Source: Bacilli bacterium
Lineage (GTDB): Bacteria; Bacillota_I; Bacilli_A; RF39; UBA660
Length of the DNA stretch: 64,000 nucleotides
Reading direction: 5' to 3'
Assembly: GCA_017460745.1 (NCBI GenBank)
Contig: JAFUAL010000042.1
Coordinates: forward strand, 14,983-78,982
Positions 1 to 31,016 of this stretch are shown here, in pieces; position 1 is the stretch's first letter, and each line of letters begins with the position of its first letter. The notes under the pieces were generated by a model, which saw only the letters and a program-made list of their open reading frames with translations, made no database searches and was not told the origin of the DNA. A program made the position numbers and the translations under genes.

Positions 1-1433
1 AAGTAATGCTTACTGAAGTAGGTGATAAAATAATTGAATATGAATCAACAAGATATAAAGAACAAAGATTAGTAGCATTTTCTAATTGGCCAACGACTGA
101 TCCTTTTGATTATAGTGAGAATATTACAAATTATTTTAAAAAAATGGCCAAGGTTGATGTTGAACATATTAAAGCAACTGATAAATTTTTATCAGGTCAA
201 TTTGTATCATATCATATTTATCCATATTATCCTGATTATTTAAACTATGAAAAAGAATATAATGATTATAAGGATCAAAATGGTGTAAAAAATACATATC
301 AAGCTTATTTAAAAAAAATAAATGATTACCACACTATGCCTGTTGTGATAAGCGAGTTTGGAGTACCATCTTCTCGTGGAATGGCTCAAAAAGATCAAAA
401 TACAATGAGAAATCAAGGTGGAATGAGTGAAGATGAACAAGGAGAAGCAATTGTTAAATGTTATCAAGATATGTTAAGTGTTGGAATAGAAAATGCAATT
501 ATCTTTACATGGCAAGATGAATGGTTTAAAAGAACTTGGAATACAATGCAAAATGTGAATTTACAGAGAACTCCTTATTGGAGTGATTATCAAACTAATG
601 AACAATATTTTGGTTTATTATCTTTTGATTCGGGTAATAACACAAGTATTAGTTACAATGATGGAAATGTTTCTGAATGGAAAAATAGTGATGTGATATC
701 TAAAACAGACAATGCATCACTTTCAGTAAAATATGATGAAAAATATGTCTATTTTTATATTAATAAAAATAATTATCAAGGAGAAAAAATATATATTGCA
801 ATTGATACAACGCCTAAAAGTGGAGCCTATTCGAGTGATAGTTATAATATTAAATTTAATAGACCAACCGATTTTTTAATTGTAATTGATGGAAAGAGTA
901 ATAGTCATATTCTCGTGCAAGAAAGATACAACACTTTGTTTGCTTTATATGGTTATGAAATTAATGAAGTAAATAGCTATTTAAATCCACCAGCAAGTGA
1001 TAGTTCTAAATTTCAAAAAATTAACTTAATGCTACAAACTGCAACCCCTCTTTTAACCAATAATAAAAGTGAGCATGCTGAAGTGTATGAAACCGGTAAA
1101 TTAAAATATGGAAATGGAAATCCAGAAAGTGATGAGTTTATTTCAAATTCAGATTTTTATATAAATGGAGATTTTATTGAAATAAGACTTCCTTGGGAAT
1201 TACTTAATTTTTCTGATCCATCTTTAATGACTATTCATGATGATTACTATGAAAACTTTGGAGTAGAAAATATTAATATTGATAAAATGTATGTTGGAAT
1301 TGGAGTAGATGGTGATACAATTGAAATGAACCCTTTAAAATTGAATAAATGGTATAACACTGTAACTTATCATGAAAGATTAAAAAAATCCTACTATATC
1401 GTTCAAAATATGTGGGTAGGAAGTGATAAATAA
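1..1433 (+). CDS. Glycoside-hydrolase-like (TIM-barrel type) protein of an exopolysaccharide locus; N-terminus lies upstream of the window
   Basis: The frame is open from nt 1 (no stop before the ATG at 6), so the gene is 5'-partial. VVISEFGVPSS resembles the nucleophile-Glu strand of clan GH-A hydrolases. The stop overlaps the next ATG (TAATG at 1431-1435), so it is co-transcribed with the HEAT-repeat and GT2 genes. Family assignment is from motif memory only. Confidence 0.45.
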   Translation, partial: VMLTEVGDKIIEYESTRYKEQRLVAFSNWPTTDPFDYSENITNYFKKMAKVDVEHIKATDKFLSGQFVSYHIYPYYPDYLNYEKEYNDYKDQNGVKNTYQAYLKKINDYHTMPVVISEFGVPSSRGMAQKDQNTMRNQGGMSEDEQGEAIVKCYQDMLSVGIENAIIFTWQDEWFKRTWNTMQNVNLQRTPYWSDYQTNEQYFGLLSFDSGNNTSISYNDGNVSEWKNSDVISKTDNASLSVKYDEKYVYFYINKNNYQGEKIYIAIDTTPKSGAYSSDSYNIKFNRPTDFLIVIDGKSNSHILVQERYNTLFALYGYEINEVNSYLNPPASDSSKFQKINLMLQTATPLLTNNKSEHAEVYETGKLKYGNGNPESDEFISNSDFYINGDFIEIRLPWELLNFSDPSLMTIHDDYYENFGVENINIDKMYVGIGVDGDTIEMNPLKLNKWYNTVTYHERLKKSYYIVQNMWVGSDK

Positions 1434-2512
1434 TGCTTAGAATAATAAATGTAATTTATATTTATTTAGCTATAATAATTTTATTAATACTATTTAATTT
1501 AGGTTATATTATTTATGAAAAAATAATTAATAAAAAAATTAGTAATAATACTTCAAAATATAAAAAAATAATTCTTAATGACTTAAAACATAAAAAAATT
1601 AATCAAAATAGTATTGATTATTTTTCTCGTAAATTAAAAAATATTAATAATTTAAGAGCTTATAATTCTGTTATAACAGAATTAATAAAAACTAAAAGTA
1701 AAAAAATGGATGAATATTTTAATAAGTATGCTGTTATATTTAATAGACTTTCTTATCATTATATTAAATATGAATCAATGAAGAAAGCTTATTTTGCTTA
1801 TGTAATTAGAACGTGTTATTTTAAAAAAGAAGTTGCAAGTGGACAGGTAATTGATTTTATTTTTAGTATTATTAAGGATAAATCAATTTATGCAAGAGAG
1901 AATGCCATGTTATTTTTATACACTAATGGATGCGAAGAATTGGTAGTAGATGCTTTGAAAATTATATGTAAGAATAATTTATATTATAATCAAATTCTTT
2001 TAGCAAATGATTTATTAAAATTTCGTGGTAATGAAAAAAGATTAAAAGATAAATTATTACTAAACTATGATAATTTTAGTGATGAATTTAAAATATCAAT
2101 TATTAACTATTTTAGATTCTCAAAAAGTAATGATTATTTGCAATTTTTTCTAACTAAACTTGAAAATAGAAACATAAATAAAGAAGTTTATTTAGCACTT
2201 CTTAGATTATTTGGTAAATACAAAGAAGAAAATGCTCTTAAATATTTACTTGAATCACTTAATTTAAAGGGCGACGAATTATTTGAATATAGGTTAGTTT
2301 CTGCATCATCTCTTAAAATTTATCAAAGTGATGTTGTAAAAAACGCCCTTATTAATGCATTAAAAGATAAAAATTGGTTTGTTAGAAAAAATGCTGCTTT
2401 ATCTCTTGCTAATTTTGAATTAAGTGATGATGATTTAAGAGAAATTAATAGTGATAGATATGCCAAAGAAATGTTGGATTTTATAATGGAAGAAAAAGAG
2501 GTAGTAAAATGA
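1433..2512 (+). CDS. Membrane-anchored HEAT-repeat protein of the EPS locus
   Basis: N-terminal TM helix (IINVIYIYLAIIILLILFNLGYIIY). C-terminal helical repeats include NWFVRKNAALSLANF, typical of HEAT/PBS-lyase repeats. ATGA start/stop overlap with the GT2 gene at 2509-2512. Confidence 0.55.
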   Translation: MLRIINVIYIYLAIIILLILFNLGYIIYEKIINKKISNNTSKYKKIILNDLKHKKINQNSIDYFSRKLKNINNLRAYNSVITELIKTKSKKMDEYFNKYAVIFNRLSYHYIKYESMKKAYFAYVIRTCYFKKEVASGQVIDFIFSIIKDKSIYARENAMLFLYTNGCEELVVDALKIICKNNLYYNQILLANDLLKFRGNEKRLKDKLLLNYDNFSDEFKISIINYFRFSKSNDYLQFFLTKLENRNINKEVYLALLRLFGKYKEENALKYLLESLNLKGDELFEYRLVSASSLKIYQSDVVKNALINALKDKNWFVRKNAALSLANFELSDDDLREINSDRYAKEMLDFIMEEKEVVK

Positions 2513-3918
2513 ATATAGTCGATCTTCTGAAAAGTATTTTATTTGTTTTTAATTCATTTTTTCTAGTTTATTTGATAGTATATTCTACTTTTTTATTCCT
2601 TTCATCTATTATTGGAAGTTTAATATTATATAGAAATAGTAATTATCGAAAACTTCGAAATGAATTAAAAGACGATTATTATGTTCCTGTTAGTATAATT
2701 GTGCCTGCATATAACGAAGAATTAACAATTATTGAAACAGTTAAATCACTTCTGAATTTACATTACAAATTATTTGAAATAGTAGTAGTTGATGATGGCA
2801 GTCGTGATGATACCTCAAAAAAATTAATCGATTATTATTCTATGATAGAAATAAAAATACCAATAAAAAAGGAAATAGAATGTAAAAATATTTTAAAAGT
2901 TTATGAAAAAATAGTAAATAATATAAAAATAGTATTGATAATTAAGGAAAATGGTGGCAAGGCAGATTCTTTAAATGCTGGAATAAATATTGCAAGTTAT
3001 CCTTATTTTACGTGCATGGATGCAGATTCTATGTTACAAGTAGATGCTTTAGAAAAAATTGTTAAACCAGTTTTAGAAGATTCTAATGTAATTGCTTGTG
3101 GTGGAAATGTACGTATTTCTAATGGAGTAAAACTGAAAAATGGAAAAGTCGTTGATTATCATCTTCCAAATAAGATACTTGATAGTATGCAAGTGCTTGA
3201 ATATGATAGATCATTCCTTGCCTCAAGAATATTATTTGACCAATTTAATGGAAATTTAATAATATCAGGTGCTTTTGGTCTGTTTAAGAAAAATATAGTT
3301 ATAGCTGCAGGTGGATATGATGCAAGCACAGTGGGTGAAGATTTTGAATTAGTAATTAAACTACATGTGTTTTGCAGAATGCATAAGATAAAATATAGTA
3401 TTAAGTATGTGTCAGATGCTGTTTGTTGGTCTCAAGCGCCCGATTCATTTGCTAATCTTTTTAGACAAAGAAAAAGGTGGAATAAAGGTTTATTACAAGG
3501 AATGATAAAATACAAAGAATTATTTTTAAATCCAAAATATGGAATGGTTAGTTTTGTTTCTTTTTTATATTTTTTAGTATATGAACTTTTTTCACCATTT
3601 ATTGAATTGATTGGAATAATTACAGTTATCATATCATTCTTATTAAATCTTTTAAATATTAAATTTATGCTTATGTTTATGGGAATATATATTGTATTTA
3701 ATAGTTTCTTATCGTTCTCTATTTTCTTATCAAGATTACATGTTGAAAATATTAAATTATCTGTTTATGATTTTTGGAAAGCACTCTTATTATCAATATT
3801 TGAAATAACAATTTTACGTTTTATTATCTTAACAGCAAGATTTTCAGCTTTTATCGGCTATAATAAACAAAAATATGTTTGGGATAGGGTAGAGAGAAAA
3901 AAAATTGAATATAAATAA
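2509..3918 (+). CDS. Family-2 processive glycosyltransferase (PgaC/IcaA/BcsA-like polysaccharide synthase)
   Basis: Motifs IIVPAYNEE, VVDDGSRDDT, CMDADS, GEDFEL and QRKRWNKG (QxxRW). TM helices at the N-terminus and several at the C-terminus. Confidence 0.88.
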   Translation: MNIVDLLKSILFVFNSFFLVYLIVYSTFLFLSSIIGSLILYRNSNYRKLRNELKDDYYVPVSIIVPAYNEELTIIETVKSLLNLHYKLFEIVVVDDGSRDDTSKKLIDYYSMIEIKIPIKKEIECKNILKVYEKIVNNIKIVLIIKENGGKADSLNAGINIASYPYFTCMDADSMLQVDALEKIVKPVLEDSNVIACGGNVRISNGVKLKNGKVVDYHLPNKILDSMQVLEYDRSFLASRILFDQFNGNLIISGAFGLFKKNIVIAAGGYDASTVGEDFELVIKLHVFCRMHKIKYSIKYVSDAVCWSQAPDSFANLFRQRKRWNKGLLQGMIKYKELFLNPKYGMVSFVSFLYFLVYELFSPFIELIGIITVIISFLLNLLNIKFMLMFMGIYIVFNSFLSFSIFLSRLHVENIKLSVYDFWKALLLSIFEITILRFIILTARFSAFIGYNKQKYVWDRVERKKIEYK

Positions 3919-3920
3919 AG

Positions 3921-3950
3921 AAGATATAGTTACATTAGCTATATCTTTTA
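3921..3950. terminator. Bidirectional hairpin between convergent GT2 and GGDEF genes
   Basis: AAGATATAG (3921-3929) pairs perfectly with CTATATCTT (3939-3947), with T/A runs on both sides. It lies in the 40-nt gap between two convergent stops. Confidence 0.6.
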
Positions 3951-3958
3951 ATATATAA

Positions 3959-4957
3959 TTATTTTCTTCTTTCGATACCAAGTTTCTTATACAATCTTTT
4001 TTTATCTTGTTGGAGTAATTTATCAGCTATAATATATAAATCTCTAATGGTTTCATTATTTTTGTGGTGAGATACGCCATAATTAATAAATAAGGGGATA
4101 TGATTATTTGCATCTAGAACAATTGCTTGAACTTCTTCTTTGATAAGTTTAAGTGTGGATTCAATTTTTTCTATATTTTGACTTTTAGTAATTAGAACAA
4201 ATTCATCTCCTCCTATACGATATATATTACTTGTGGGAAAATATTTTGATAGAATTTTAGCTACTTCTATGATATATCTATCACCATGATCATGACTAAA
4301 ATTATCATTTACATATTTTAATCTAAATAAATCGAACAATATATAATAAAATTGCTTGTTTGATTTATTTAATTTTTTAATGTAACTTTCATATGAATCA
4401 CGATTTTTCAGTCCAGTTAATCTATCAGTTGTACTTAATTTTTTTATATGTTCGACTTGATCGATTTTTTTTAGAATAATACAAATAGTATCTTTTATAA
4501 TATCTAAATATCGGCTGTTATAAGTATTAAATTCCTTTGGTAGATTAACCAGTGCAATTATATATTTTGTGTTTTTTTCTTTAATATAAATAAATGTTAC
4601 TTTGTTTAGATTTTTATTATCCAAATATTCCATGTTGAGAATTTTTTCATGTTCAATTAATTTTTTGTTATTCTTTATAAGAATTGATAAATTTTTGTTT
4701 TTTATATGTGAATTGTAATTTATGTAATCGTGATTTTTGGTACTTTTAAATAAAAATACATTACTGCATTTAAGGGATTTTTTTATTATTTCAAGTGATT
4801 TATTTAAGCCATTATAAATATCAAAAGATTTAATAGCATCAGCTAGAATATTATATGCAATATAGTACATATTATTATTTAAATTTTCTTTAGAACATTC
4901 TTTATTAATTACCTTCATTATTGCCAATTTATCACCTCTTTTAAAATAAATATTCAT
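3959..4957 (-). CDS. Diguanylate cyclase (GGDEF domain) with an uncharacterised N-terminal sensor region
   Basis: C-terminal half has RLTGLKNRDSY...FDLFRLKYVNDNFSHDHGDRYI...YRIGGDEFVLI, an intact GGDEF active site. No RxxD I-site is seen 5 residues upstream. Confidence 0.88.
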   Translation of the reverse strand: MNIYFKRGDKLAIMKVINKECSKENLNNNMYYIAYNILADAIKSFDIYNGLNKSLEIIKKSLKCSNVFLFKSTKNHDYINYNSHIKNKNLSILIKNNKKLIEHEKILNMEYLDNKNLNKVTFIYIKEKNTKYIIALVNLPKEFNTYNSRYLDIIKDTICIILKKIDQVEHIKKLSTTDRLTGLKNRDSYESYIKKLNKSNKQFYYILFDLFRLKYVNDNFSHDHGDRYIIEVAKILSKYFPTSNIYRIGGDEFVLITKSQNIEKIESTLKLIKEEVQAIVLDANNHIPLFINYGVSHHKNNETIRDLYIIADKLLQQDKKRLYKKLGIERRK

Positions 4958-5161: not shown

Positions 5162-5190
5162 TTTACTTTTTGACCATTTTGTGGTATAAT
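5162..5190 (+). promoter_or_regulatory. Sigma-A-type promoter of the 5.2-9.7 kb operon
   Basis: -35 TTTACT (5162-5167), 17-nt spacer, extended -10 TGgTATAAT (5182-5190). RBS AAGGAGAG precedes the ATG at 5214. Confidence 0.5.
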
Positions 5191-5213
5191 AAGTCTCAAA
5201 TTAAGGAGAGAAT

Positions 5214-6503
5214 ATGCAACTTAAAACAATGAATGACAACTTGAGAAAAATAGAAAAATTAAAAAATATTACGTTTATTAAATTTGTGGATTTATCGTCA
5301 ACAAATAATGATAAGTATACAATTATTCCCGGATTTATGGTTTTTTATAACGGACTTGACTATCTATTTTTAACCTCTAAAGATGAATACTTTTTAGAAT
5401 TTGTGAAAAAATTAAGAGAAGTATATTTAAAAGAAAAAGATAATATCGTGAAAAAAGATTTCTTTGGAAATAAATATTCAATCGAAATAGATGATATTAC
5501 TAAAAAACTTTTGCTTGAAGGCGAATTAGATAAAATTGAAGAAATGTATTCATTCTTGAGTGAAAAAGAAGGATACAATGAATCTTTGTTTTTTAAAGAA
5601 GAGGAAGTAAAAGGAATATTGCCGATTGTAAAATATCATTTGGAAAATACTTTGTCTTTATTTTCTATTTCACTTGAAGTAGAAAACTCACCTAAAGGAT
5701 ATCAAGGATTATATTATTTAAAAGGAAGAAAAAACGGAATTCCTTGTTTTATACCTATGTTTTATTTAAAAAATGATTACAATACTTATTATTTAGAAAT
5801 TGGTGGATTATTTGATAAAAGTATGCCAATTAGTATGAATATATCTTTTAAAGAAAAAGAAGTAGTGGTGGATACTAAAATAGAAGATTTAGCATTTTCT
5901 AATCATGAAAGTTATAAGTTTTCAGACAATAAAGTTATAGCTAAAAGGACAGTTTATTTAAACCAAGATATGAAGATATTTAAAAGTGAAGAATTAAAAC
6001 CAACTCTAGCACCTAAAAATGATTTGATGTATTTAAATGGTACTGAAACTCATTGGTATTTACTTCCTTGGAATGCTTATTATGGTGGGAAGAAAGAAGA
6101 AATTCAAATTACAGAAGATGAAAAAATTAATTCTTATCAAACAATTTATTTTGATATAGAACCAAAGATGTTTTTTATAAAAGAAAACTATTCAAAACAG
6201 TATCAAAAAAGTTCGCCGGTTGTGATTGATAATAAAAGATTTATTTTAGACAATATGGAATCAACATCAATTGGCTATGAACAAGATAAAGTTACATATA
6301 TAGAAACAAGTTTTAACAAATTAGGAACACTTGGATATTTTAAACAGCATTTAGCTGGAAAATATTTTTATCATATTGCAAATAAAGAATTAAAAAGTGT
6401 CTCTAAAAATGATTTTATAGCACTTAATCAAATGAATGGAATATATGATAAAACCGATTTACTAAGAACAGAAAAAATAAAAAAATTGATAAAGGAGAAA
6501 TAA
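5214..6503 (+). CDS. Hypothetical protein (429 aa), first gene of the AAA_5/vWA-like triad
   Basis: Long ORF with RBS AAGGAGAG 5 nt upstream and a 7-nt gap to the next gene. I recognise no motif. Confidence 0.7.
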   Translation: MQLKTMNDNLRKIEKLKNITFIKFVDLSSTNNDKYTIIPGFMVFYNGLDYLFLTSKDEYFLEFVKKLREVYLKEKDNIVKKDFFGNKYSIEIDDITKKLLLEGELDKIEEMYSFLSEKEGYNESLFFKEEEVKGILPIVKYHLENTLSLFSISLEVENSPKGYQGLYYLKGRKNGIPCFIPMFYLKNDYNTYYLEIGGLFDKSMPISMNISFKEKEVVVDTKIEDLAFSNHESYKFSDNKVIAKRTVYLNQDMKIFKSEELKPTLAPKNDLMYLNGTETHWYLLPWNAYYGGKKEEIQITEDEKINSYQTIYFDIEPKMFFIKENYSKQYQKSSPVVIDNKRFILDNMESTSIGYEQDKVTYIETSFNKLGTLGYFKQHLAGKYFYHIANKELKSVSKNDFIALNQMNGIYDKTDLLRTEKIKKLIKEK

Positions 6504-6510
6504 TAAATAA

Positions 6511-8766
6511 ATGAAATTTTTTGATAAAACAGAAGAAGAAAAGAAAAGGGAAGAAGAGAAAAAACAATTAACAACATTAGAGAAAGCAATAATTTATTCA
6601 GATATTTTAAAAGAAGATGCTTATAAAGTATTAACTAGTTATATTATGGAAGTAAAAAGTAATAAAAGAAAAAATGATTTTTTTGAATTAGATTTTTTAG
6701 TAAGAGTCTTTTTACAATTAATTGATCAAGAATTTGGTACAGAAGAGAAAATGCAAAATCAATTAGATAAAATTATTCTTATTATTCGAGATTTATTACC
6801 AGCTGGAATAAAAACTTCTAATTATACATTTATAAAAGAAATGATTATTAATAACTTTGTATCTAAAGATGGATATCTTGCTTATAATTTATTTGATATG
6901 AATTTTTATTCATTATTTGATAATAAAACACTTTATTTAAATTGTATGAATATTATTTTAAATAGCAAAAAGTTAAGAAATCAAATGTCTTTAATTATTA
7001 AATATGCATGTAAAGTTAGTCGTTATTCTATAACTAAAGATATGTTTTATAGTGATATGATTGCTTTTTTAGCTGGAATGGAAGATGTTGTTAACAATGA
7101 ATATGTAGCATATGCAAATGCTTGTTTAGAGATTGCAAAAAAAAGAGTAGGCGTTTATGCAATTGATGAAAAAAAACTGGCTCTTTGTAATTCTAATGTG
7201 GAAAGAGTAGAAGGCTATTTAGACCAAATGAAAGTATATGAGGAGTCTTTAGAAAATACTAAAACTTCTATTGGGGAAATGCTTCGAAGTGAAAAAGAAG
7301 AAATAAAAAAGATGAGAGCGTCATCAATTCAAATTTTTAGAAAAGAAATTCAAAAAGAAAAAGAAGAATTATTAAAGAAGTTAGATGAATATTTATTAGA
7401 TTTGGAAGTCTCATTAAAAGAAAAAAGTGATGATGTTTTTAAAGAAATACTTGCTAATTACCAAAAACAAATTCGTGAAATGCATACAATGTTCCAAGGG
7501 TATTCACGTGCAACAAGTGAGGATTTAATAAGAATACAAAAAGCAGCAGAAGATTCTTTACAAGAGTTGAAAAATTATGTTCAAAACGATGATCATTTGA
7601 AAGAAGTATTAACTAAAGCAAATGAAAGTAATGAAGTACGAGAAAAAATAGTTCAATTAGTAGAACAAGAAAAAAAATTGGTTACTTCTAATGAATCTGG
7701 TCTAATTCCAGGAATGGAGAAAGTTATAGTACCAGCAACACCTCAAGTTATTATTCCGCAATCACAACAAAGTCAGAGAATTTTAAGTGCTTTTGATGAA
7801 AAAATACCTTTTTCTCTTCGTTTAGATAGAATTTTAGCATTAAAAGAAGCTAATGAAAAAAAAGGAAAAATTTATCATGAAAAAACGATTCAAATTGTAA
7901 AATGTCTTATGGAAGGAGATTGGCCTTATTTATTAGGACCAAGTGGTTGTGGAAAAAGTTATTTGATGAGTCAAGTTGCAGAACTTCTAGGAATTGAACT
8001 TGTTAAAAGTGGAAAAATTACAGAACCTTATACAGTTATGGGATATACAGACCCTCAAGGTAAGTTTAGAGCAACTCAAACTTATATTGCTCTTGTATAT
8101 GGAAAATTACTTGGATATGATGAATTTGATAATGGAAATCCCGATACTCATGTTGTAATAAATGAAATATATTCTAAATTATTAGATAAATTGGATGACA
8201 TAAAAGGAAAACATTATGTAACTTTTGCCGAAGATGTACCAGCTGAAATAAATCCAAATTTTCGAATGATAAGTGCTGGTAATACAACGGGTGGTGGTGA
8301 AAATGCTTTGTTCTCATCACGTGGAAAATTAGATGAATCAGTTCAAGAGAGAATGACACCTATTCGAGTTGGATATGATAATCGTGTCGAAGAACAAATC
8401 TTTGGTCAACATAAAAATTGGTATAATTTCTTTGTTAAGTTCCGTGAAGCCTGTGATAACTATGCTTTAAATAATAATATGGAGTCTGCTCAAGGGATTG
8501 GAACAACAAGAGATGCAGCTGCTATTGTAAAATATATAAAACATGATAGTAAAACATTAGATGAATTATTAGAAGAAAAATTTACTCAGACTAAAGATAT
8601 GGATTATTTATCATCACTTGCAAAGTTTATTGGTCGTTCATATGACATTAATGTAAGTGAAGTTAAAAATCCAAATACCAATAATCATACTTTAGAGTCA
8701 TTTTCTGAACAAACGATTGCTAAAAAATTCATTTATAAGTGTAAAAGTAAAAAAGGAAATATCTAA
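6511..8766 (+). CDS. Coiled-coil N-terminal region fused to an AAA_5 (MoxR/CbbQ/McrB-type) ATPase
   Basis: Walker A GPSGCGKS (nt 7936-7959), Walker B LLGYDEFDN, and PNFRMISAGNT typical of AAA_5. About 470 residues of K/E-rich helical sequence precede the P-loop. Confidence 0.75.
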   Translation: MKFFDKTEEEKKREEEKKQLTTLEKAIIYSDILKEDAYKVLTSYIMEVKSNKRKNDFFELDFLVRVFLQLIDQEFGTEEKMQNQLDKIILIIRDLLPAGIKTSNYTFIKEMIINNFVSKDGYLAYNLFDMNFYSLFDNKTLYLNCMNIILNSKKLRNQMSLIIKYACKVSRYSITKDMFYSDMIAFLAGMEDVVNNEYVAYANACLEIAKKRVGVYAIDEKKLALCNSNVERVEGYLDQMKVYEESLENTKTSIGEMLRSEKEEIKKMRASSIQIFRKEIQKEKEELLKKLDEYLLDLEVSLKEKSDDVFKEILANYQKQIREMHTMFQGYSRATSEDLIRIQKAAEDSLQELKNYVQNDDHLKEVLTKANESNEVREKIVQLVEQEKKLVTSNESGLIPGMEKVIVPATPQVIIPQSQQSQRILSAFDEKIPFSLRLDRILALKEANEKKGKIYHEKTIQIVKCLMEGDWPYLLGPSGCGKSYLMSQVAELLGIELVKSGKITEPYTVMGYTDPQGKFRATQTYIALVYGKLLGYDEFDNGNPDTHVVINEIYSKLLDKLDDIKGKHYVTFAEDVPAEINPNFRMISAGNTTGGGENALFSSRGKLDESVQERMTPIRVGYDNRVEEQIFGQHKNWYNFFVKFREACDNYALNNNMESAQGIGTTRDAAAIVKYIKHDSKTLDELLEEKFTQTKDMDYLSSLAKFIGRSYDINVSEVKNPNTNNHTLESFSEQTIAKKFIYKCKSKKGNI

Positions 8767-9734
8767 TGAAATATATTACAAATAACCATGAAAGATTTCC
8801 AGAGAATGTTTTAGAAATACAAGTTATAAATGTTGATGATAATAAATACATAGTTTATCCTTTTCGTTTTCGTGGATTATATGATTTATATAATTATCTA
8901 AATTCCAATCCTAAAATAAATTATGAAGTATGGAGTAAAAATAATTTAGCAAGCATTAATGGTGAATTTAGTTTTGCAGGTGATGCATATGAAGATGCTT
9001 TAAAATCTTTGCTTGGAGATGTTGATCCTGGTTATCAAGAATTTCTGAAAGTAGAAAATAAAGTCAATGCTAATCTTGGAAGAGTTCATAAGTATGAAAA
9101 GATAAGAACAGTTGCCGGAGGTCATGTTAATGTTCCTTTGTACGCGTCAGGAAGTCCTTTTATATATGAAGCAAGTCGAGTAATTAATAAACCAAAATTT
9201 ATAACAGTAAATATTGCTTTATCTTATTTTTGGGGAACTTCTAAAAGTCAAGTATTTAATCGTGCAATCATAATTACTAATATTGTCAAGGCTTTAGAAA
9301 AAGCAGGTTATAGTGTTAATATAAATGCTTTTGAATTAAGTAGTGAATCTAATGAGTTATTTAAAATGATTTTTGAAATAAAACATTTTGGAGAAAAGAT
9401 AAATTATCAAGCCATGTATAAATCATTATGTAGAGTAGAATTTTTAAGAAGACTATGTTTTAGAGTACTAGAAACTTCGGATGTAAAAGAAGATTGGGAA
9501 CATGGGTATGGTTCTACATGTGGCAGAAATTTTACTAAAAAAGTTTTAAAATTAAAAAAAGATGATTTATATTTTGATCAACCAAGAGAAATGGATATAT
9601 ATGGAAGAAATTTAGTTGAAGATTTTGAAAATGCTGCTGATTATTTAAAATTAAGTAATATAATTGACGTTGAAAGAGAAAAAAATAAGTTTAAAGAAAA
9701 TGTAAAAGTGCTTAAAAAAAATTTAAAAAATTAA
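8766..9734 (+). CDS. Hypothetical partner protein with a vWA-like alpha/beta core (MIDAS motif absent)
   Basis: The ATG overlaps the upstream stop by 1 nt. KFITVNIALSYFWGTSKSQVFNRAIIITNIVKALEKAGYSVNINAF has the strand-loop-helix-strand layout of a vWA/Rossmann-like fold but no DxSxS. The fold call is inference. Confidence 0.5.
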   Translation: MKYITNNHERFPENVLEIQVINVDDNKYIVYPFRFRGLYDLYNYLNSNPKINYEVWSKNNLASINGEFSFAGDAYEDALKSLLGDVDPGYQEFLKVENKVNANLGRVHKYEKIRTVAGGHVNVPLYASGSPFIYEASRVINKPKFITVNIALSYFWGTSKSQVFNRAIIITNIVKALEKAGYSVNINAFELSSESNELFKMIFEIKHFGEKINYQAMYKSLCRVEFLRRLCFRVLETSDVKEDWEHGYGSTCGRNFTKKVLKLKKDDLYFDQPREMDIYGRNLVEDFENAADYLKLSNIIDVEREKNKFKENVKVLKKNLKN

Positions 9735-9807
9735 TTTACACACTTACTAAATTATGTTAGAATTGTTTTACAATTAAGTTATTATTTGGTTTCAAAAGGA
9801 GAATAAG

Positions 9808-23711: not shown

Positions 23712-24827
23712 ATGAATAAAATACGAGTTTTTGAAACATTCTCAGGAATTGGTGCCCAAAACAAGGCATTGAGAAATATTGGAATTGATTATGAAATAGT
23801 TGCAACAAGTGATTGGTTTGTTGATGCTATTTTGGCATATGATGCAATACATTGTAAAGGTACAAAAATTAATGTACCATCATATAAAAAACAAATAGAA
23901 TATTTATCAAAATTTACATTCAGTTGTGATTCTGTAAAGCCATATCGTAATTTAGCAAAAAAAGGTGCAGAAGAAATTAAAAAATTATATATTGCAAATA
24001 AACGAACAAAGAATCTTGGGTCAATAACAGAAATTAAAGCGAAAGATATACCTGATCATGATTTGTTAACATATAGCTTTCCTTGTCAAGATTTATCTAC
24101 TGGTGGAAAAACAAGAGGGATGAGCAAGGGCTCAGGGACTAGATCAGGATTGTTATGGGAAATAGAAAGAATATTAACTGAATTAAATGAAGAGAATAGA
24201 TTGCCTAAGTATTTGTTAATGGAAAATGTTAAAGCTATTCTTGCTGAATCCAATAAAAAAGATTTTAAAATGTGGCAAGATTTTTTAGAAAATTTGGGAT
24301 ATAAAAATGAAGTTATGGTTTTATCAGGAAAATATTTTGGGGTACCTCAGGATAGGGCAAGATGTTTTATGGTTAGTGAATTAGGAAGACAACCAGAAAT
24401 AGAATCAAGACTGAAACTTTCATTATACCCAGAAGAGGATATAAGTAAATTTTTAAGAACTGATTATACTGACCCAGTATATAAACAGGAGGCAGATGAT
24501 GCACAATTACGTAAAACCGATTCGAGAGAAAGAATGTGGAAAGTTAATCAAAGAGATATCAAAAATTTAAAGTATTTTAATACTATAACGTGCAACATGG
24601 ATAGACAAAACAATGCAGGTATGATATTATATGATGGACCCAAAGGGAAGTCTTATCGTTTATTGACAGCACGTGAAGCATTTTTGCTGATGGGATTTTC
24701 TGAAGAAGACTTTGAAAATGTAAAAAAACTTGGATTAAGTTATAGAAAAATGATTAAATTAGCAGGTAATTCAATTGTTGTGCCTGTTTTAGAAGCAATA
24801 TTTAAGGTAATGTTTGAGGAGAAATAA
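23712..24827 (+). CDS. dcm: DNA (cytosine-5)-methyltransferase
   Basis: Motif I FETFSGIGA, motif IV FPCQDLS, motif VI ENVKAIL, QDRARCF, GNSIVVPV. Confidence 0.95.
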   Translation: MNKIRVFETFSGIGAQNKALRNIGIDYEIVATSDWFVDAILAYDAIHCKGTKINVPSYKKQIEYLSKFTFSCDSVKPYRNLAKKGAEEIKKLYIANKRTKNLGSITEIKAKDIPDHDLLTYSFPCQDLSTGGKTRGMSKGSGTRSGLLWEIERILTELNEENRLPKYLLMENVKAILAESNKKDFKMWQDFLENLGYKNEVMVLSGKYFGVPQDRARCFMVSELGRQPEIESRLKLSLYPEEDISKFLRTDYTDPVYKQEADDAQLRKTDSRERMWKVNQRDIKNLKYFNTITCNMDRQNNAGMILYDGPKGKSYRLLTAREAFLLMGFSEEDFENVKKLGLSYRKMIKLAGNSIVVPVLEAIFKVMFEEK

Positions 24828-24828
24828 G

Positions 24829-25857
24829 ATGAATAGAGTAGTTCTGCCAATTGATAAAAAATCTTTATTTTTGAATATATTTAATGATAATGAATATGGG
24901 CATACTGCAACTGTATCAACTCCAATTAAGCAAGGGAATTCTACAAATGAAAAATTAGCTCAAATATTCAAAGTTCCAAAACAAATAGATTTTAATGCAA
25001 AACCATTATTAGTTGATGAATTAATAAAAAACTCTAAATCTAAAATAAAAATTAATAATGTATTTTTGTTTGATAAAATTGCTGTAAATGGTGAACTAAT
25101 CGAAACTGGGAAAATTTTATATTGCATGTACATTAAGGAAGAAGTAGATTCTTCCAAAGCACAATATGGAAGGATTAAACTTCATTACCCATTAGGATTA
25201 AAATATGAAGATAGTGACATTGATATAGACAATAAATATATTATTAATCTTATTTCAAAGAAAGTATTTAATTATGCTTTTATAGTAAATAGTTTTGAAT
25301 ATGACTTTGATAATGATATATTGAATTTTAATATAACAATTATTGGGGAAAACAAAATACCATACTCAAAAGTTTTTATCAATAATAAAGGAACAGGAAA
25401 CAAATTTAATAGTATTTTTAATGAATTCGCTGAATCTTATGATATGGAAATTATCTCATTAAGACAAAAATTTGGACAAGAAATCGGTCCTGATAATTAT
25501 TTAGAATACATGGAGATAGCAAAAGATAAAGCAATGGCCGAAGTGGAACTATATGCTAGAAAAAAGTATAAAAATGATGTGACTAATATATCGTTACCAT
25601 ATCCTTATTCGTTATATGATTTTGAATGTAGAGAAGGATATACCACTAAATATTATTTAGTATTTTATACTACATCTAATAATGAATACTTTAATATATC
25701 GTCAAAAAAACTTAAATTTATTAATGATTTTAAAAATAATGTAGAAATATTAGTAATGACAAACATTTTGAACGAGCCAAAAATATCAAAGTATAACGTA
25801 GAGCAAATATTGACATTTTCAAAAAGTATAAATTCAGTAATGCTTAGAAAGGAGTAA
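24829..25857 (+). CDS. Hypothetical protein (343 aa) between Dcm and the GHKL ATPase; possible MzaA-equivalent
   Basis: Start set at ATG 24829 (RBS GAGGAG 8 nt upstream, 1 nt after the dcm stop). No clear motif. The C-terminal YDFECREGYTTKYYLVFYTT...FNISSKKLKF is weakly reminiscent of a PD-(D/E)XK/DUF3883-type core. Confidence 0.6.
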   Translation: MNRVVLPIDKKSLFLNIFNDNEYGHTATVSTPIKQGNSTNEKLAQIFKVPKQIDFNAKPLLVDELIKNSKSKIKINNVFLFDKIAVNGELIETGKILYCMYIKEEVDSSKAQYGRIKLHYPLGLKYEDSDIDIDNKYIINLISKKVFNYAFIVNSFEYDFDNDILNFNITIIGENKIPYSKVFINNKGTGNKFNSIFNEFAESYDMEIISLRQKFGQEIGPDNYLEYMEIAKDKAMAEVELYARKKYKNDVTNISLPYPYSLYDFECREGYTTKYYLVFYTTSNNEYFNISSKKLKFINDFKNNVEILVMTNILNEPKISKYNVEQILTFSKSINSVMLRKE

Positions 25858-25860
25858 TCT

Positions 25861-27315
25861 ATGGGAAAGTATATTACACAAATTCCACCAGCTAAATCAT
25901 TAATTAGTGGAATAAGATCAATTGGATATAGTTTTGCATCTTCTGTTGCAGATATTATAGATAATAGTATCACAGCAAAGGCTTCTGAAATAAATGTATA
26001 TGCTGATCCGTTAGATGAACCATATTTTGTGATCTTGGACAATGGGCTAGGAATGAATTATGATGAATTAAAAAACGCAATGACATTTGGATCAGACAGA
26101 AGTAACAAGATAGATAATGAACTAGATTTGGGAAGATTTGGTCTTGGATTAAAGTCAGCATCTTTATCACAATGTCGAAAAATGATGGTTATTAGTAAAG
26201 AAAAAGATAGTATAAATGGTATGTGTTATGATTTAGAAATAATTGAAGCTCAAAATGATTGGGTGCTTGAAGTACTAGACGAAGATGAAATTAAAAGAAT
26301 GCCGTGTTTTGAACAATTAAATAAATATGAGACTGGAACATTAGTTATTTGGCAGAATTTTGATAAATTAGATGCATTAGCCACTAATTTTGTAACCTCT
26401 TTTAGAAATGCAGTTGCTGATGCAAAAAAACATGTTGAGTTAGTATTTCACTATTATTATGATTCAGTTAGTATTTATTTTAATAATGATAGGATTGAAA
26501 AAAGAGATCCATTTTTAATTAATTCAGCTCCTAGACAGCAAACCGGTAGGACAGACCCTATAATAATGAATGGTTCAATTATTACAATTACACCTTATAC
26601 GCTACCTTTTGCCAATACATTAACACAAGAAGAAAAAAAATTATTAGGAAATACAAATATATATGATGAACAGGGCTTTTATATTTATAGAAATAAAAGA
26701 CTTATAATTTGGGGAAGTTGGCTCCATATGAATGTTAGAAGTGAGTTAAGCAAATTAGCTCGTGTTAAAATAGAGATACCTTCTACATTAGATAAAGAAT
26801 GGAGCCTAGATGTAAAAAAATCAACTGCAAAAATCCCAGACAAAATAAAAGATCAAATAAAAGCTTCTCTTGAGGACTCAATACACAGAAGTAAAAGAAC
26901 AACAAGATTCAAAGGGGTAAAAGAGCAGCAATTTGAAGACAAGGTGTGGAATAGAATAAATTTAAGAGATGGTTTTGTTAAATATGAATTGAATAAGGAA
27001 AATCCATTATACAAGTTGTTATCAGAAAATCTTTCAGAAACAGATAAAAGATTATTGGATTCCTTTATATTTCAAATTGAGACTGGGTTACCAAAGTATT
27101 CAATACAAAACGACACTCTAGATGATTTGAAAATTATAAATGATAGTGATAGTAATACACCAGAAGAATTAGTTGAGAGAGTATGCAAAGATTTGGAATG
27201 CGTACCGAGCTCCAAAAAAGAAGCAATATTGGATGAATTACTTAAAACAGATGTATATAAGAGTATTTCTGATAAAAGAGATTTAATAATTGAGAGGATT
27301 GGTGTTTATGTCTGA
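25861..27315 (+). CDS. GHKL-superfamily ATPase (HATPase_c_3; MORC/MutL-like)
   Basis: Bergerat-fold motifs: N-box ADIIDNSITAKA, G1 LDNGLGM, G2 LGRFGLGLKSAS. Confidence 0.85.
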   Translation: MGKYITQIPPAKSLISGIRSIGYSFASSVADIIDNSITAKASEINVYADPLDEPYFVILDNGLGMNYDELKNAMTFGSDRSNKIDNELDLGRFGLGLKSASLSQCRKMMVISKEKDSINGMCYDLEIIEAQNDWVLEVLDEDEIKRMPCFEQLNKYETGTLVIWQNFDKLDALATNFVTSFRNAVADAKKHVELVFHYYYDSVSIYFNNDRIEKRDPFLINSAPRQQTGRTDPIIMNGSIITITPYTLPFANTLTQEEKKLLGNTNIYDEQGFYIYRNKRLIIWGSWLHMNVRSELSKLARVKIEIPSTLDKEWSLDVKKSTAKIPDKIKDQIKASLEDSIHRSKRTTRFKGVKEQQFEDKVWNRINLRDGFVKYELNKENPLYKLLSENLSETDKRLLDSFIFQIETGLPKYSIQNDTLDDLKIINDSDSNTPEELVERVCKDLECVPSSKKEAILDELLKTDVYKSISDKRDLIIERIGVYV

Positions 27316-30088
27316 TTTAGAAACAAAAGCATATAGAATGTTAAAAGAATTTTTAAGAGGAGAAAACAAGTCTATAGAAAAAATAAGGGAGGCTATTGAT
27401 ACAATATTAGAAATGAGTATTTTCAAAGAATCAAATATAGAAGATATCAAAAATACTATATATGATGAATATATAACTAATATTGGAATTGTAAATCCTG
27501 ATGCAGAATTTCTTGTTAAAGATAAAGATTTCAATAATTGGATGAAATTATCCAATGCTTCTACAAATTGCTTTGATAGATATATGGACTATTTAAGGGA
27601 CATGGATTTTCCGGAAGCCTCAATTGAAAAAATGACTAAGGCAACAAACGATATACTAGCTAGATGTGCCGATCCAAATAATTTAAATGACCATAAGAAC
27701 TCTAAGAAAAAAGGCTTGGTAATGGGAGATATTCAATCTGGAAAAACTGCAAATTACACTGCTTTAATAAATTTGGCTGCTGATTATGGATACAAAGTGA
27801 TAGTACTACTAGCTGGTATGACAGATTCTTTGAGAGAACAAACACAAAAACGTATTGATTCAGGATTTATTGGTGCCAAGAGTGATACCATAAGTAGTTC
27901 AATAATAAATTTTGTAGGCGTAGGAAAAGAAGAAAACAAGTATTATGCCATCCCTTTAACTAATGTTAATTCAGATTTTGGTAAAGTGGTAAGAGAAAAT
28001 CAGAATACCAATTCTAGCGATTTTAATAAACCACTAATATTGGTTATTAAGAAAAATAAAAGTGTATTAAAGCAGGTTAAAGATTATTTAAAACCAGGAA
28101 TTCATGGAATCACTTCAGAAAATATTTTAATTATTGATGATGAGGCTGATAATGCATCTGTTAATACCAAAAATAATGATGATCCATCAATTATTAATAA
28201 GCTAATTCGAGATTTATTCAATAATTTTACTATTGCTTCGTACGTTGGATTTACAGCAACGCCTTTTGCAAATATATTTATAAATCCATATGATGATGAT
28301 TTTAATAAAGATTTATTTCCATCAGACTTTATCGTTCAATTAAGGGAACCTTCATCATATTTTGGAGCAAATAAGGTTTTTAATAATCTTGGAAGTATAG
28401 ATGAGCCTAAATATAAGCATATAGAAATACTAGATCCGCATGAAAAAAACTTTTTACTATTAACACATAAAAAAGATGATGAAATATTTCCTGTTCTACC
28501 TAATAGTTTGAAAAAAGCAATAAATGATTTCATAATTGTAAATGTTATTAGAACATTAAGAGGGAAAGAATTTAAACATAGGACCATGATGATTAATATT
28601 TCTCGTTTTAATGCAATCCAATATAAAATATATGATAAAATCAATGATTATATTGATTTGATGAAAAATACTATATCACAAACTTATAAATCGGATTTTA
28701 ATAGTTTTATTAGAGATCCTTACATGAATGATTTATATGAAGAATATAATGATGAATTTTTCTCTGAAATAAGAGAAGAATTTACATGGGATCAAATTCA
28801 AGAAGGTTTAAATAGTGAGATTCAACAATTTATAGTTACAGTAGTAAATAATAACAATAAGAAAAATAGATTTAATTATGATAATTATGAAAAAGAAGGA
28901 GCTAGAGTAATCGCTATTGGAGGATTTATTCTATCAAGAGGTCTTACTTTAGAGGGATTAATGATAAGCTACTTCAATAGAAAAGCCAATGCTTATGACA
29001 CAGTATTACAGATGTGCAGATGGTTTGGATACAGACCAGGATACGAAGATTTATGCAGAATATATATGACTCAAGAAAATATTGATAATTTTGAGGATGT
29101 CATAGATGCCGTATCAAATTTAAAAGAGCAATTTAAACAAATGGATGTAGAAAATAAAACACCTGAGGATTTTGGATTAATGGTAAAACAATCGCCAGCA
29201 AGACTAAATATGCAAATGTTTATTTCGAGTGGAGAAGAGCTTGAAAAATTTGAAAAGATGGGCATTACTGCTAAAAACAAAATGAGAAGCACCGAGGAAA
29301 AAATAATAACACTGAACTATAGTGGAATTGCTACGGATACATCCAAGTTATTTAATGATAAAGTAAAAAATGAAGAAAACAAAAATACAATCGACTTATT
29401 ATTTAATAGTTTAAAAGATAAAGAATTAAATTTAGAGTATGTTGGTGGGAGATTAATGGTTCAAAGAATACCAAAAGGCATTATTTCTGATTTTATTAGC
29501 AAATTTAAATTACCATTTCTAAATAAGAATTTTGATACAGAGAGTTTATCAGAATATATCAAGAATTCTGTTTTCATGCAAGAATGGGATTTAGTTATAG
29601 CAACGGGTTCTAAGAATGATAATGATTATTGGAACTTTGAAGGCTATAATATACCAGTTATAACTCGTTCATTTGACATGAATTATTCAGATAACATAAT
29701 ACGAATTTCTGGAAATAAAAACAGATTGTATGAACCTGGTATTTTTAATAGTGGTTTGAATGATAAACAATTGTCACAGGCAAATATGAACATGGTTTAT
29801 CATGAAAGAAAAAATCTTATTGCAGAAGACTATTTAAATATTCAAAGGCGTCCATTATTAGTAATATACCCAATTAGGTTAAAAAAGAAAAAGAATTCAC
29901 CAGTCAATGATTCTGAAATGAAAGCAATTAATAATTTTAATAATGGAACCCCATTGTTCGGAATTGCTTTAGGTTTTCCTGGTATTAAAACAAATGAAAG
30001 AGTTAGCTACAGACTAAATAAAGTTAAGATTGAGCAATTATCTCTTGATTTTGAGTATGAGGAGGAATATGATCCTAATGAAGATTAA
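27308..30088 (+). CDS. Z1-domain protein (SF2 helicase-like P-loop NTPase)
   Basis: Start at ATG 27308, overlapping the GHKL stop by 8 nt. Walker A GDIQSGKTANYT, DExx box IIDDEADNAS, GFTATPFAN. Z1 signature RGLTLEGLMISYFNRKANAYDTVLQMCRWFGYRPGYEDLCRIY. Confidence 0.85.
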   Translation: MSDLETKAYRMLKEFLRGENKSIEKIREAIDTILEMSIFKESNIEDIKNTIYDEYITNIGIVNPDAEFLVKDKDFNNWMKLSNASTNCFDRYMDYLRDMDFPEASIEKMTKATNDILARCADPNNLNDHKNSKKKGLVMGDIQSGKTANYTALINLAADYGYKVIVLLAGMTDSLREQTQKRIDSGFIGAKSDTISSSIINFVGVGKEENKYYAIPLTNVNSDFGKVVRENQNTNSSDFNKPLILVIKKNKSVLKQVKDYLKPGIHGITSENILIIDDEADNASVNTKNNDDPSIINKLIRDLFNNFTIASYVGFTATPFANIFINPYDDDFNKDLFPSDFIVQLREPSSYFGANKVFNNLGSIDEPKYKHIEILDPHEKNFLLLTHKKDDEIFPVLPNSLKKAINDFIIVNVIRTLRGKEFKHRTMMINISRFNAIQYKIYDKINDYIDLMKNTISQTYKSDFNSFIRDPYMNDLYEEYNDEFFSEIREEFTWDQIQEGLNSEIQQFIVTVVNNNNKKNRFNYDNYEKEGARVIAIGGFILSRGLTLEGLMISYFNRKANAYDTVLQMCRWFGYRPGYEDLCRIYMTQENIDNFEDVIDAVSNLKEQFKQMDVENKTPEDFGLMVKQSPARLNMQMFISSGEELEKFEKMGITAKNKMRSTEEKIITLNYSGIATDTSKLFNDKVKNEENKNTIDLLFNSLKDKELNLEYVGGRLMVQRIPKGIISDFISKFKLPFLNKNFDTESLSEYIKNSVFMQEWDLVIATGSKNDNDYWNFEGYNIPVITRSFDMNYSDNIIRISGNKNRLYEPGIFNSGLNDKQLSQANMNMVYHERKNLIAEDYLNIQRRPLLVIYPIRLKKKKNSPVNDSEMKAINNFNNGTPLFGIALGFPGIKTNERVSYRLNKVKIEQLSLDFEYEEEYDPNED

Positions 30089-31016
30089 TTTTGAAGATAA
30101 ATTTAAAGAACTAAGTGCAATTAGCGATATATTAAAAAAGGTTGATAGTAATAATAAAGTAAAGATTTTTTATGGTTTATCAAAAGAAGGCAAAAAAAGA
30201 TTAGCATTTTTATCAACAATTGTTCCTAGTCAAATAGAATCTACAAAAATGATAAGTGTTAGTTATTATAAAGATAATGAAAATTCAAATTGGTTAAGTT
30301 TTGATCTAGAAAATAATAACTATTCCAATCTATTCTATACTTTCTGTACAGATATGGTTAATTCATTGAATGGATTAAATGATGAAAAAGAAGAATTAGA
30401 ATATTTAAAACAAAGATTTTATAATTGGAAAAAGATGTTTCAAAATATATCTACTAAAGAATTATCAGAGGAAAAAGAGCAAGGAATATATGGAGAATTG
30501 TATTTTTTATACAAGTATATGATTCCAAAATATGGTGTAGAGAAATCGATTTTATCATGGGCTGGACCACATAAGTTTAACAAAGACTTTTCAATTGACG
30601 AAAATTGGTACGAAATTAAAACATCAAGTGTTAATGCTACTACAATTGAAATAAGATCAATTAATCAATTAGATTCAGATGTTGATGGTTTTCTTGCTGT
30701 AGTTAAGGTTGAAAAAATGTCTACGGAATATAGAGGGGAATTGTCATCTATTTTTGAATTAATTCAAGCTATCATGAGTGAAATTACAAGTATTCAAATT
30801 CAAGACGATTTTCTTAATAAACTAATTGAGTTAGGGGTTGGACCTGAAAATAATTTTGGCTCACGCCGCTATGATACAAAAAATATATTATTATATAATG
30901 TGTCAGATAAATTTCCTAGGCTTACAAGAAAAAATATAGCATTCGCTGAAATAGAAAATGTTACTTATACTATTAATCTTTCTCAAATTGATAAATTTAA
31001 GTTGGAGGAATTATGA
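30078..31016 (+). CDS. PD-(D/E)XK-motif protein (DUF4420-like)
   Basis: Start at ATG 30078 (or 30069) after RBS GAGGAGGA, overlapping the Z1 3' end. GIYGELYFL...GPHKFNKDFS...WYEIKTSS gives an E...D...ExK pattern. Confidence 0.7.
   Translation: MKINFEDKFKELSAISDILKKVDSNNKVKIFYGLSKEGKKRLAFLSTIVPSQIESTKMISVSYYKDNENSNWLSFDLENNNYSNLFYTFCTDMVNSLNGLNDEKEELEYLKQRFYNWKKMFQNISTKELSEEKEQGIYGELYFLYKYMIPKYGVEKSILSWAGPHKFNKDFSIDENWYEIKTSSVNATTIEIRSINQLDSDVDGFLAVVKVEKMSTEYRGELSSIFELIQAIMSEITSIQIQDDFLNKLIELGVGPENNFGSRRYDTKNILLYNVSDKFPRLTRKNIAFAEIENVTYTINLSQIDKFKLEEL

Follow-up and report, generated by a model that had tools for sequence, protein, structure and literature searches.

What do the three tightly packed genes at positions 5214–9734 of a 64,000-nucleotide stretch of contig JAFUAL010000042.1 (referred to here as the window) encode, and are they an orphan operon, as a first-pass annotation made from the sequence had described them? 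The stretch comes from a metagenome-assembled 'Bacilli bacterium' (assembly GCA_017460745.1; proteins IJ068_04485 and IJ068_04495). The three genes and all of their features described below are on the + strand: gene 1 (G1, 5214–6503) encodes 429 amino acids, gene 2 (G2, 6511–8766) encodes 751 and gene 3 (G3, 8766–9734) encodes 322. G1 and G2 are separated by a 7-nucleotide gap, and G2 and G3 overlap by 1 nucleotide in TAATG, so the three open reading frames and their spacing were confirmed as reported. The word orphan does not apply, given that G3 matches Pfam PF23822 and phrog_1909, G2 matches phrog_249, and G1 belongs to a family with 224 representatives. The three genes are one co-inherited unit, and the true family of this triad is a pair known from phages, a CobS-like ATPase and a DUF7192 protein, which is extended in cells by G1 and by a long N-terminus on the motor.

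The three proteins and the phage pairs

Pfam, PHROG and profile matches together with conserved residues place G2 among the AAA+ ATPases of the MoxR/CobS/midasin class, with a long N-terminal extension. The alignment and profile were built from 21 homologues, 17 of them bacterial, one from a mobile element and three from phages. When this profile was compared with the PDB, the midasin AAA domains were matched with an E-value of 3e-28 summed over domains and 1e-7 for the best single domain, CobS (9ujv) with 2.4e-8 and CbbQ with 8.4e-6, in agreement with the AAA_5/MoxR-type assignment made earlier; a search with the single sequence had returned only P-loop noise, and the profile was needed in its place. 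With Pfam AAA_5 the score is 23.5 bits, the cut-off being 22, Pfam AAA is likewise just over threshold, and G2 orthologues from a deep branch of the family (see below) carry precomputed PF07728. The PHROG family phrog_249, annotated 'porphyrin biosynthesis', i.e. CobS-like, matches G2 at E 7.6e-22. Midasin and CbbQ score comparably to CobS, and therefore the similarity of G2 to CobS is at the level of the class only.

The AAA+ core and C-terminal region of G2, defined by invariant residues and profile matches, comprises residues 451–751 (7861–8763). It contains the Walker A motif GPSGCGKS (residues 476–483, nucleotides 7936–7959), the Walker B motif LLGYDE (residues 533–538, 8107–8124), sensor-1 N591 (8281–8283) and the arginines R604 (8320–8322) and R614 (8350–8352). 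The sequences LLGYDEFDN and NFRMISAGN are both found in G2, so that the motifs originally quoted are all in place. Residues G476, G481, K482, E538, D540, N591, T592, R604 and R614 are invariant in the 21 homologues and D537 is nearly so. Since both Walker motifs, sensor-1 and two arginines do not vary, and D537 hardly does, the ATPase is predicted to be active, and G2 should be a catalytically competent motor of the MoxR/CobS class. Ahead of the core lie an N-terminal domain without assigned family that is present in cellular homologues only (residues 1–215, 6511–7155), a K/E-rich segment that resembles a coiled coil in heptad periodicity and composition (residues 216–400, 7156–7710) and a Pro-containing linker, delimited by consensus and composition, with the motifs IPG..R..VP and AFDE.IPF (residues 401–450, 7711–7860). 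A coiled coil of about 470 amino acids had been proposed for this part of the protein; the K/E-rich segment is real, but it spans roughly 180 amino acids (216–400) plus the first 60. Only residues 1–60 and approximately 216–400 are K/E-rich or heptad-periodic, and residues 61–215 differ from them in composition and lack the K/E enrichment. Mean pairwise identity among the 17 bacterial homologues is 33% in the N-terminal domain and coiled coil and 58% in the AAA+ core. Database matches to the coiled-coil segment were judged to reflect spurious coiled-coil similarity.

G3 is a member of Pfam PF23822 (DUF7192), with an E-value of 7.5e-21 and 75.1 bits against a cut-off of 27 over model positions 11–259 of 281, and it matches phrog_1909 at E 3e-21. 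PF23822 was also matched by all 12 bacterial and phage G3 homologues examined, and no paper on DUF7192 was found in the literature searched. The AlphaFold2 model of G3, computed from a 27-sequence alignment, has a predicted local distance difference test score (pLDDT) of 83.7 and a predicted template modeling score (pTM) of 0.77. Its four best Foldseek matches in the PDB are to NorD's vWA domain on the AAA+ ring of NorQ (E 2e-5 to 2e-3, probability 0.98–1.0), and about 45 further vWA domains, which account for nearly all of the remaining matches, come after these, including those of vWF-A1, Ku70/80, C2a, Rpn10, TFIIH p44, TRAP and collagen VI. In the model, the order of secondary structure elements is consistent with the vWA order b1-a1-b2-b3-a2/3-b4-a4-b5-a5; this order and the conservation pattern place a putative vWA-like alpha/beta core at residues ~106–295 (9081–9650). 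G3 contains KFITVNIALSYFWGTS...VKALEKAGYSVNINAF. A comparison of the G3 profile with PDB sequences gave nothing significant. Because the Foldseek TM-scores are low (~0.22) and no Pfam VWA model matched any of the 12 homologues at E≤1, we describe G3 as vWA-like with moderate confidence only, an assignment that draws on 3Di-level similarity and topology.

The MIDAS of vWA domains (the metal ion-dependent adhesion site), with its DxSxS motif, is absent from G3 and from all 27 bacterial and 7 phage or mobile-element homologues. Both the vWA-like fold and the missing DxSxS of the first-pass annotation agree with our results. The equivalent loop reads SYFWGTSKS in G3 (residues 152–160, nucleotides 9219–9245), and its consensus, LSYxWGTSKxQ, is devoid of a conserved Asp or Ser triad, in the homologues from phages as in those from bacteria. 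Conservation is found instead in a family signature, EFLRR..FR and GYG, at residues 225–249. The homologues are 282–368 amino acids long, with an optional short N-terminal extension as the sole variation, and none was found on plasmids. Residues 9–65 of G3 (window 8790–8960, …YIVYPFRFRGLYDLYNYLNSNP…) bear a weak likeness to the C-terminal half of the GRB2 SH2 domain, which is not significant; the SH2-like resemblance of the N-terminus was dismissed on an hmmsearch E-value of 0.3.

G1, in which no recognizable motif had been seen, has no match in Pfam, NCBIfam or PADLOC and only a non-significant one in PHROG. Pfam gave no match even at E≤1, including VMAP-C, VMAP-M and iSTAND, and a profile of G1 matched nothing significant among PDB sequences. 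The AlphaFold2 model (pLDDT 85.6, pTM 0.82) predicts an N-terminal alpha/beta region followed by about 18 beta-strands arranged as a meander, so that the C-terminal two-thirds are all-beta. No match at E≤1e-3 was obtained when this model was compared with the PDB and BFVD using Foldseek; resemblances to porin, VDAC and FABP were generic beta-meander matches (E≥2.7e-3, TM≤0.2), and no fold was assigned. By known sequence family or fold, G1 is without a relative. An exhaustive profile search places it in a family with 224 representatives at 50% clustering, about 370–450 amino acids in length and of a single architecture. At all loci seen, the gene lies upstream of the ATPase gene, and it was not found in phage collections. 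In none of G1, G2 and G3 is there a hydrophobic stretch that could serve as a membrane span or signal peptide.

The ATPase and DUF7192 pair without G1 was found in IMG/VR phage contigs, in Staphylococcus Kayviruses and in cluster L mycobacteriophages. It adjoins a DnaB-like helicase gene in three IMG/VR phage contigs and is carried by 236 Staphylococcus phage records, for example as Kayvirus PALS1_061/062, in a setting of dUTPase, RNase H and PhoH genes. The cluster L examples are Faith1 gp136 ('porphyrin biosynthesis') with gp135 and gp127, and LeBron gp128/gp127. When compared with the AAA+ region of G2 by hhalign, Kayvirus PALS1_061, Faith1 gp136 and LeBron gp128 gave E-values of 1.7e-33, 2.4e-20 and 6.4e-21, respectively, and the phage DUF7192 partner matched G3 at E 2.6e-29; the phage CobS-like pairs are genuine homologues of G2 and G3. 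The resemblance to phage CobS/CobT-like pairs suggested earlier thus holds for the ATPase, whereas the partner is DUF7192 and not CobT. The phage pairs (phrog_249 with phrog_1909) share with the triad the gene order, the adjacency or overlap of the genes, the invariant ATPase residues and the MIDAS-less loop. They differ in that G1 is absent, in that the phage ATPases lack the N-terminal region of about 450 residues (domain and coiled coil) of G2, and in their location in the early or replication regions of lytic phages.

The only experimental datum that was found for any of these proteins concerns LeBron gp128, which on overexpression in M. smegmatis ranks with the most toxic genes of this phage; neither gp127 nor gp120 is listed as toxic (PMC13148394). 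Cluster L phages have two DUF7192 paralogues per CobS-like ATPase, gp135 and gp127 in Faith1 (L034) and gp127 and probably gp120 in LeBron (L044). One record labels their ATPase 'porphyrin biosynthesis', and a 2026 paper calls it 'AAA-ATPase' and suggests an MCM-like helicase role for it; both labels look unsupported given the identity of the partner. A further short pair was found in a cellular contig of one species (L016:1773–6146), where a phage-like ATPase of 577 amino acids and a DUF7192 protein of 297 amino acids come after a tyrosine recombinase (Phage_integrase, E 3e-27). This integrase-linked pair is directly upstream of a chromosomal G1-G2-G3, and is a mobile-element copy parked beside the cellular triad.

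Distribution, patchiness and divergence of the triad

In a locus scan that used one genome per species, the triad was found in 27 species, all of them uncultured gut Bacilli, including 'Candidatus Coprovivens', which answers in the affirmative the question of whether the genes co-occur elsewhere. The order G1-G2-G3 is identical at all 27 loci wherever the contig allows it to be seen. Four distant relatives of G1 (20–24% identity, on contigs of 28–40% G+C) belong to a deep branch with only 20–34% identity and the same gene order: G1 precedes an AAA_5 protein of 721–747 amino acids in all four loci, and DUF7192 comes next in the three whose contig reaches far enough. Wherever the contig allows it to be seen, the triad genes are intact in the 27 species and in the deep branch, which points to purifying selection.

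In the deep branch the unit has a fourth gene. A TelA gene (PF05816) overlaps or abuts G3 on its downstream side in all three loci where this region is visible (L037:12340–13422, L040:11634–12287 and L042:4826–5881). Neither the window nor any of the 27 loci contains TelA. In Listeria and Bacillus, TelA/YceH is linked to envelope stress. The possibility that the N-terminus of G2 is a fused TelA was considered and rejected (hhalign probability 0.2). Across clades, no conserved fourth gene was found upstream of G1, and neither a client gene nor any other gene outside the triad is conserved beside it, the link to TelA being confined to the deep branch. The flanks differ by clade and include Der/EngA, EngB, ThrRS, FtsK-like, PncA/PncB, ThiI, Mur ligase, GatB, guanylate kinase and NusB genes.

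Eight species have in common the arrangement EngB-Der-unk624-G1-G2-G3-ThrRS-FtsK-like, in which unk624 is a protein gene described below. Presence and absence of the triad were tested at this site. From 80 metagenome contigs with close relatives of that Der, an informative set of about 11 loci was obtained, with Der at least 77% identical and enough downstream sequence. The triad is present at the Der site in six loci (L045–L049 and L053) and missing in five (L050, L052, L054, L058 and L061). In L050, L052, L054 and L058 the ThrRS gene follows within 0.4–1.1 kb after Der, and in L061 only unk624 is found at the site. When the empty L050 was compared with the filled L046, homology stopped at the end of Der and resumed just past G3, so that the block lacking in L050 (L046 11338–16136) is exactly G1-G2-G3. 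There are no flanking repeats around the triad at the Der site. The nearest Der relatives of two of the empty loci carry the triad, at 93% identity, and filled and empty states interleave on an unbootstrapped neighbor-joining tree of Der. The neighboring genes had suggested a vertically inherited core operon, hence a housekeeping one, a view that the presence/absence test overturned; nor is the triad universally conserved in core synteny, which would have implied the same, since close relatives are patchy at a fixed site. This patchiness therefore keeps open a conflict role or an accessory one.

The triad also diverges several times faster than its neighbors. Where Der and ThrRS are 85–88% identical, identity is about 45% for G1, 49–59% for G2 and 57–71% for G3, and the divergence of the triad tracks that of Der with r of 0.5–0.7. 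The triad is thus a discrete, dispensable, rapidly diverging cassette at a variable chromosomal spot, intact wherever it is present.

The gene between Der and G1 in the eight-species arrangement, unk624 (L003:4189–6063), encodes a protein of 617–660 amino acids with no Pfam match and has homologues in L006, L007, L010, L011, L012, L021 and L025. It adjoins the triad in one subclade, shows 40–68% identity and evolves as fast as G1. Its presence and absence are independent of the triad, and its position also changes. A transglutaminase-like Cys/His/Asp pattern (VCVGYSNLL ... GNHARR ... FADPTWD) can be discerned by eye, and was not confirmed by any profile.

A putative remodeling complex and the competing explanations

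MoxR-type AAA+ motors that have vWA partners occur widely, and few have a known job. Because presence is patchy, divergence is fast, homologues occur in lytic phages and a link to TelA exists, we tentatively favor an accessory ATP-driven remodeling complex of the MoxR/CobS kind, as opposed to a housekeeping operon or a system for cofactor insertion, most likely in the service of phage–host conflict or of a phage-relevant envelope or membrane stress, and put its chances at a little below even. We infer that the three proteins act together. G2 would be the AAA+ motor, presumably a hexameric ring, and G3 a degenerate vWA-type adaptor that has lost its MIDAS and may dock on the ring as NorD does on NorQ or CobT on CobS. 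In NorQ-NorD, the vWA domain reaches into the ring pore with a finger, and a linker of the adaptor is twisted by ATP hydrolysis (PMC13036017), and in CobSTN the CobT shaft is inserted in the CobS ring with CobN bound on the other face of CobT (bioRxiv 10.64898/2026.07.21.739949). By analogy, G3 on a G2 hexamer could pass force to G1, or gate it. G1 would then be a cell-specific third subunit, either a client or a module for specificity or output, that is made first off the same transcript. The cell-specific N-terminal domain and coiled coil of G2 might provide a second contact or a localization arm, and the MIDAS-less G3 would have to grip its partner by another surface, for which the conserved EFLRR..FR/GYG region is the candidate.

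Comparison with characterized systems shows how far each of these analogies extends. NorQ-NorD and CbbQ-CbbO likewise combine an AAA_5-class motor with a separate vWA-fold partner, and the NorD vWA is the best structural match to G3; however, the MIDAS of NorD and CbbO is functional and their clients are encoded close by (NOR and Rubisco, respectively), whereas the triad has no MIDAS and no conserved client, includes G1 as an additional, obligatory component and has a motor whose N-terminus is a long coiled coil. CobS-CobT-CobN is similar in being built of an AAA+ motor, a vWA adaptor and, as its third component, a subunit to which the adaptor binds, but G3 is not CobT, G1 is not CobN and the corrin context is absent from the triad. 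Midasin/Rea1 provides the best-scoring solved relatives of the G2 AAA+ region and is also an AAA_5 motor that works with a vWA/MIDAS-type domain. It is, on the other hand, a single chain of 4,700–4,900 residues in which six AAA domains are fused and a true MIDAS domain is present, and a eukaryotic ribosome-assembly factor.

Several results weigh against a role of the remodeling complex in conflict or phage-relevant stress. The genes flanking the triads are ordinary housekeeping genes and not defense islands, a single uniform architecture is kept across the 224 G1 representatives, and PADLOC-DB v2 gave no significant match for any component, only generic AAA and coiled-coil similarity. A recognizable effector (nuclease, peptidase, TIR or pore former) is present in none of the components. 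The low TM-scores of G3 and its lack of a Pfam VWA match belong here as well. Absence at the same site is compatible with a copy of the triad elsewhere in the genome, and fast divergence can also mean weak constraint on lineage-specific structural proteins.

Some of these points would be accommodated by a lineage-specific chaperone without any part in conflict, similar to RavA-ViaA, with the task of maturing or repairing some cellular complex whose genes lie elsewhere, such as an envelope or membrane assembly, and with G1 as adaptor or client; its function would be dispensable but part of ordinary physiology. We regard this as a serious competitor, though one that is rather unlikely to be correct. 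The characterized MoxR-vWA pairs NorQD, CbbQO, CoxDE, RavA-ViaA and CobST are all chaperones (PMC13036017; PMC9976466; PMC3893208). Housekeeping neighbors, synteny at the level of the subclade, the correlation of r 0.5–0.7 between divergence of the triad and of Der, and the lack of an effector domain are all in keeping with a chaperone, and the TelA partner of the deep branch points to envelope stress. Yet no client gene is conserved beside the triad in any lineage, the MIDAS by which known pairs grip their clients is missing, and the triad is patchy between genomes with 93% identical Der and diverges far faster than the adjacent genes. In addition, pairs in strictly lytic phages are hard to square with a host-specific client.

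A more specific form of a conflict role, which we consider possible but improbable, is a phage-defense or exclusion system of an undescribed type, in which the motor and the MIDAS-less adaptor would hold or release G1 as a sensor or membrane-active effector. The two-gene core of lytic phages, Kayviruses and cluster L mycobacteriophages among them, might then be a counter-measure or an ancestral takeover tool, and TelA could be the membrane-side partner in one branch. The only fold resemblances of the G1 model are weak and are to beta-barrel pores.

A still smaller probability is given to the idea that the triad is a domesticated or remnant phage module, the pair having primarily an early or replication-associated function in phages and the chromosomal copies either having been captured, without a host role of their own, or serving a resident mobile element. 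The DnaB-like helicase beside the pair in IMG/VR phages, its dUTPase, RNase H and PhoH context in Kayviruses and the tyrosine recombinase ahead of the short phage-like pair in L016 speak in its favor. The chromosomal triads, however, are without integrase, phage structural genes or flanking repeats, their G+C content equals that of the flanks, and none of the three genes is disrupted in the 27 species and the deep branch, as far as the contigs reach; moreover, G1 and the 450-amino acid N-terminal extension of G2 are specific to cells.

The first-pass annotation had compared the operon with the ternary MoxR-vWA conflict systems of the VMAP/iSTAND type (Kaur et al. 2020), which release an effector on activation. 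The gene order of third protein, MoxR and vWA matches these systems, which are likewise ternary, strictly ordered and co-inherited with a fast-evolving third component (PMC7159879), and in the triad too it is the third component that evolves fastest. The resemblance ends there. VMAP systems have VMAP-C, vWA effector domains, diversified architectures and other hosts, namely multicellular actinobacteria and cyanobacteria, whereas G1 is without VMAP-C, VMAP-M or iSTAND at Pfam E≤1 and all-beta in its C-terminal part, the MIDAS-less vWA-like G3 has no C-terminal effector domains, the single architecture is uniform and not shuffled, and the hosts are reduced gut Bacilli. That the triad belongs to these systems is contradicted by their defining features and very improbable. 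Least probable of all is a CobS/CobT-type cobaltochelatase, as implied by the 'porphyrin biosynthesis' annotation of PHROG and of the phages and by the matches to phrog_249 (E 7.6e-22) and CobS 9ujv (E 2.4e-8), which is contradicted as well, since the partner, which lacks a MIDAS, is not CobT, and neither the window nor any neighborhood examined contains CobN or other corrin or cobalamin genes.

Whichever explanation is correct, DUF7192 gains a fold-level identity, vWA-like and without the metal site, and the label 'CobS-like/porphyrin biosynthesis' in therapeutic Staphylococcus Kayviruses and in mycobacteriophages is almost certainly misleading. Uncultured gut Bacilli carry a three-gene cellular version in the form of a fast-evolving, dispensable cassette. 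A role of the remodeling complex in defense or envelope stress, if true, would define a new class built on a well-understood motor, and would explain why lytic phages retain the pair; should the triad prove to be a niche chaperone instead, the main gain would be a corrected annotation.

Sequence setting of the operon

A Shine-Dalgarno-like site is present ahead of each of G1, G2 and G3; that of G1, as read from the sequence, is AAGGAGAG at 5203–5210, 3 nucleotides 5' of the ATG. An extended -10 promoter had been assigned to 5162–5190, in the 256-nucleotide intergenic region upstream of G1. The site is present (TTTACT, a 17-nucleotide spacer and TATAAT, with TG at 5182–5183; score 10/12), but promoter-like matches in this AT-rich stretch do not exceed expectation (35 found against 40.4 expected in shuffled sequences), so that a role as promoter is plausible and not demonstrated. 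A second promoter-like site, TTTACA with a 17-nucleotide spacer and TAGAAT, again with TG, lies at 9735–9763 ahead of the next gene and sets the 3' boundary of the unit. After G3, no intrinsic terminator was predicted. The G+C content of the window is about 25%, and that of the triad equals that of its flanks. No Rfam match was obtained over the window, and the operon DNA has no nucleotide similarity to phage records.

Upstream of the triad is a locus with family-2 glycosyltransferase (GT2) and GGDEF genes, and downstream of it are a lipoprotein and a glucosaminidase gene; the glycosyltransferase and GGDEF annotations are consistent with the c-di-GMP/exopolysaccharide locus originally placed beside the operon. 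The first part of the window (1–4957) comprises the 3' part of the gene for a 707-amino acid protein, a HEAT_2-like protein, the family-2 glycosyltransferase and a divergently transcribed GGDEF protein. According to the contig annotation, a CotH-like protein (L001 1–526) is encoded beyond the 5' end of the window.

A defense island is found at 23712–34410, approximately 14 kb downstream of the triad and separated from it by housekeeping genes (fmt, polA, thioredoxin and others). It includes genes for a Dcm-type DNA methylase, an uncharacterized open reading frame, HATPase_c_3, a Z1 domain protein, DUF4420 and AIPR (abortive-infection type), and on the opposite strand a restriction enzyme with Mrr_cat/AspBHI-N. 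Further downstream, an IS605-family OrfB/TnpB gene with a Cas12f-like TNB domain (54599–55711) is located just 5' of the RRF gene and the S10 ribosomal-protein operon (start near 56657).

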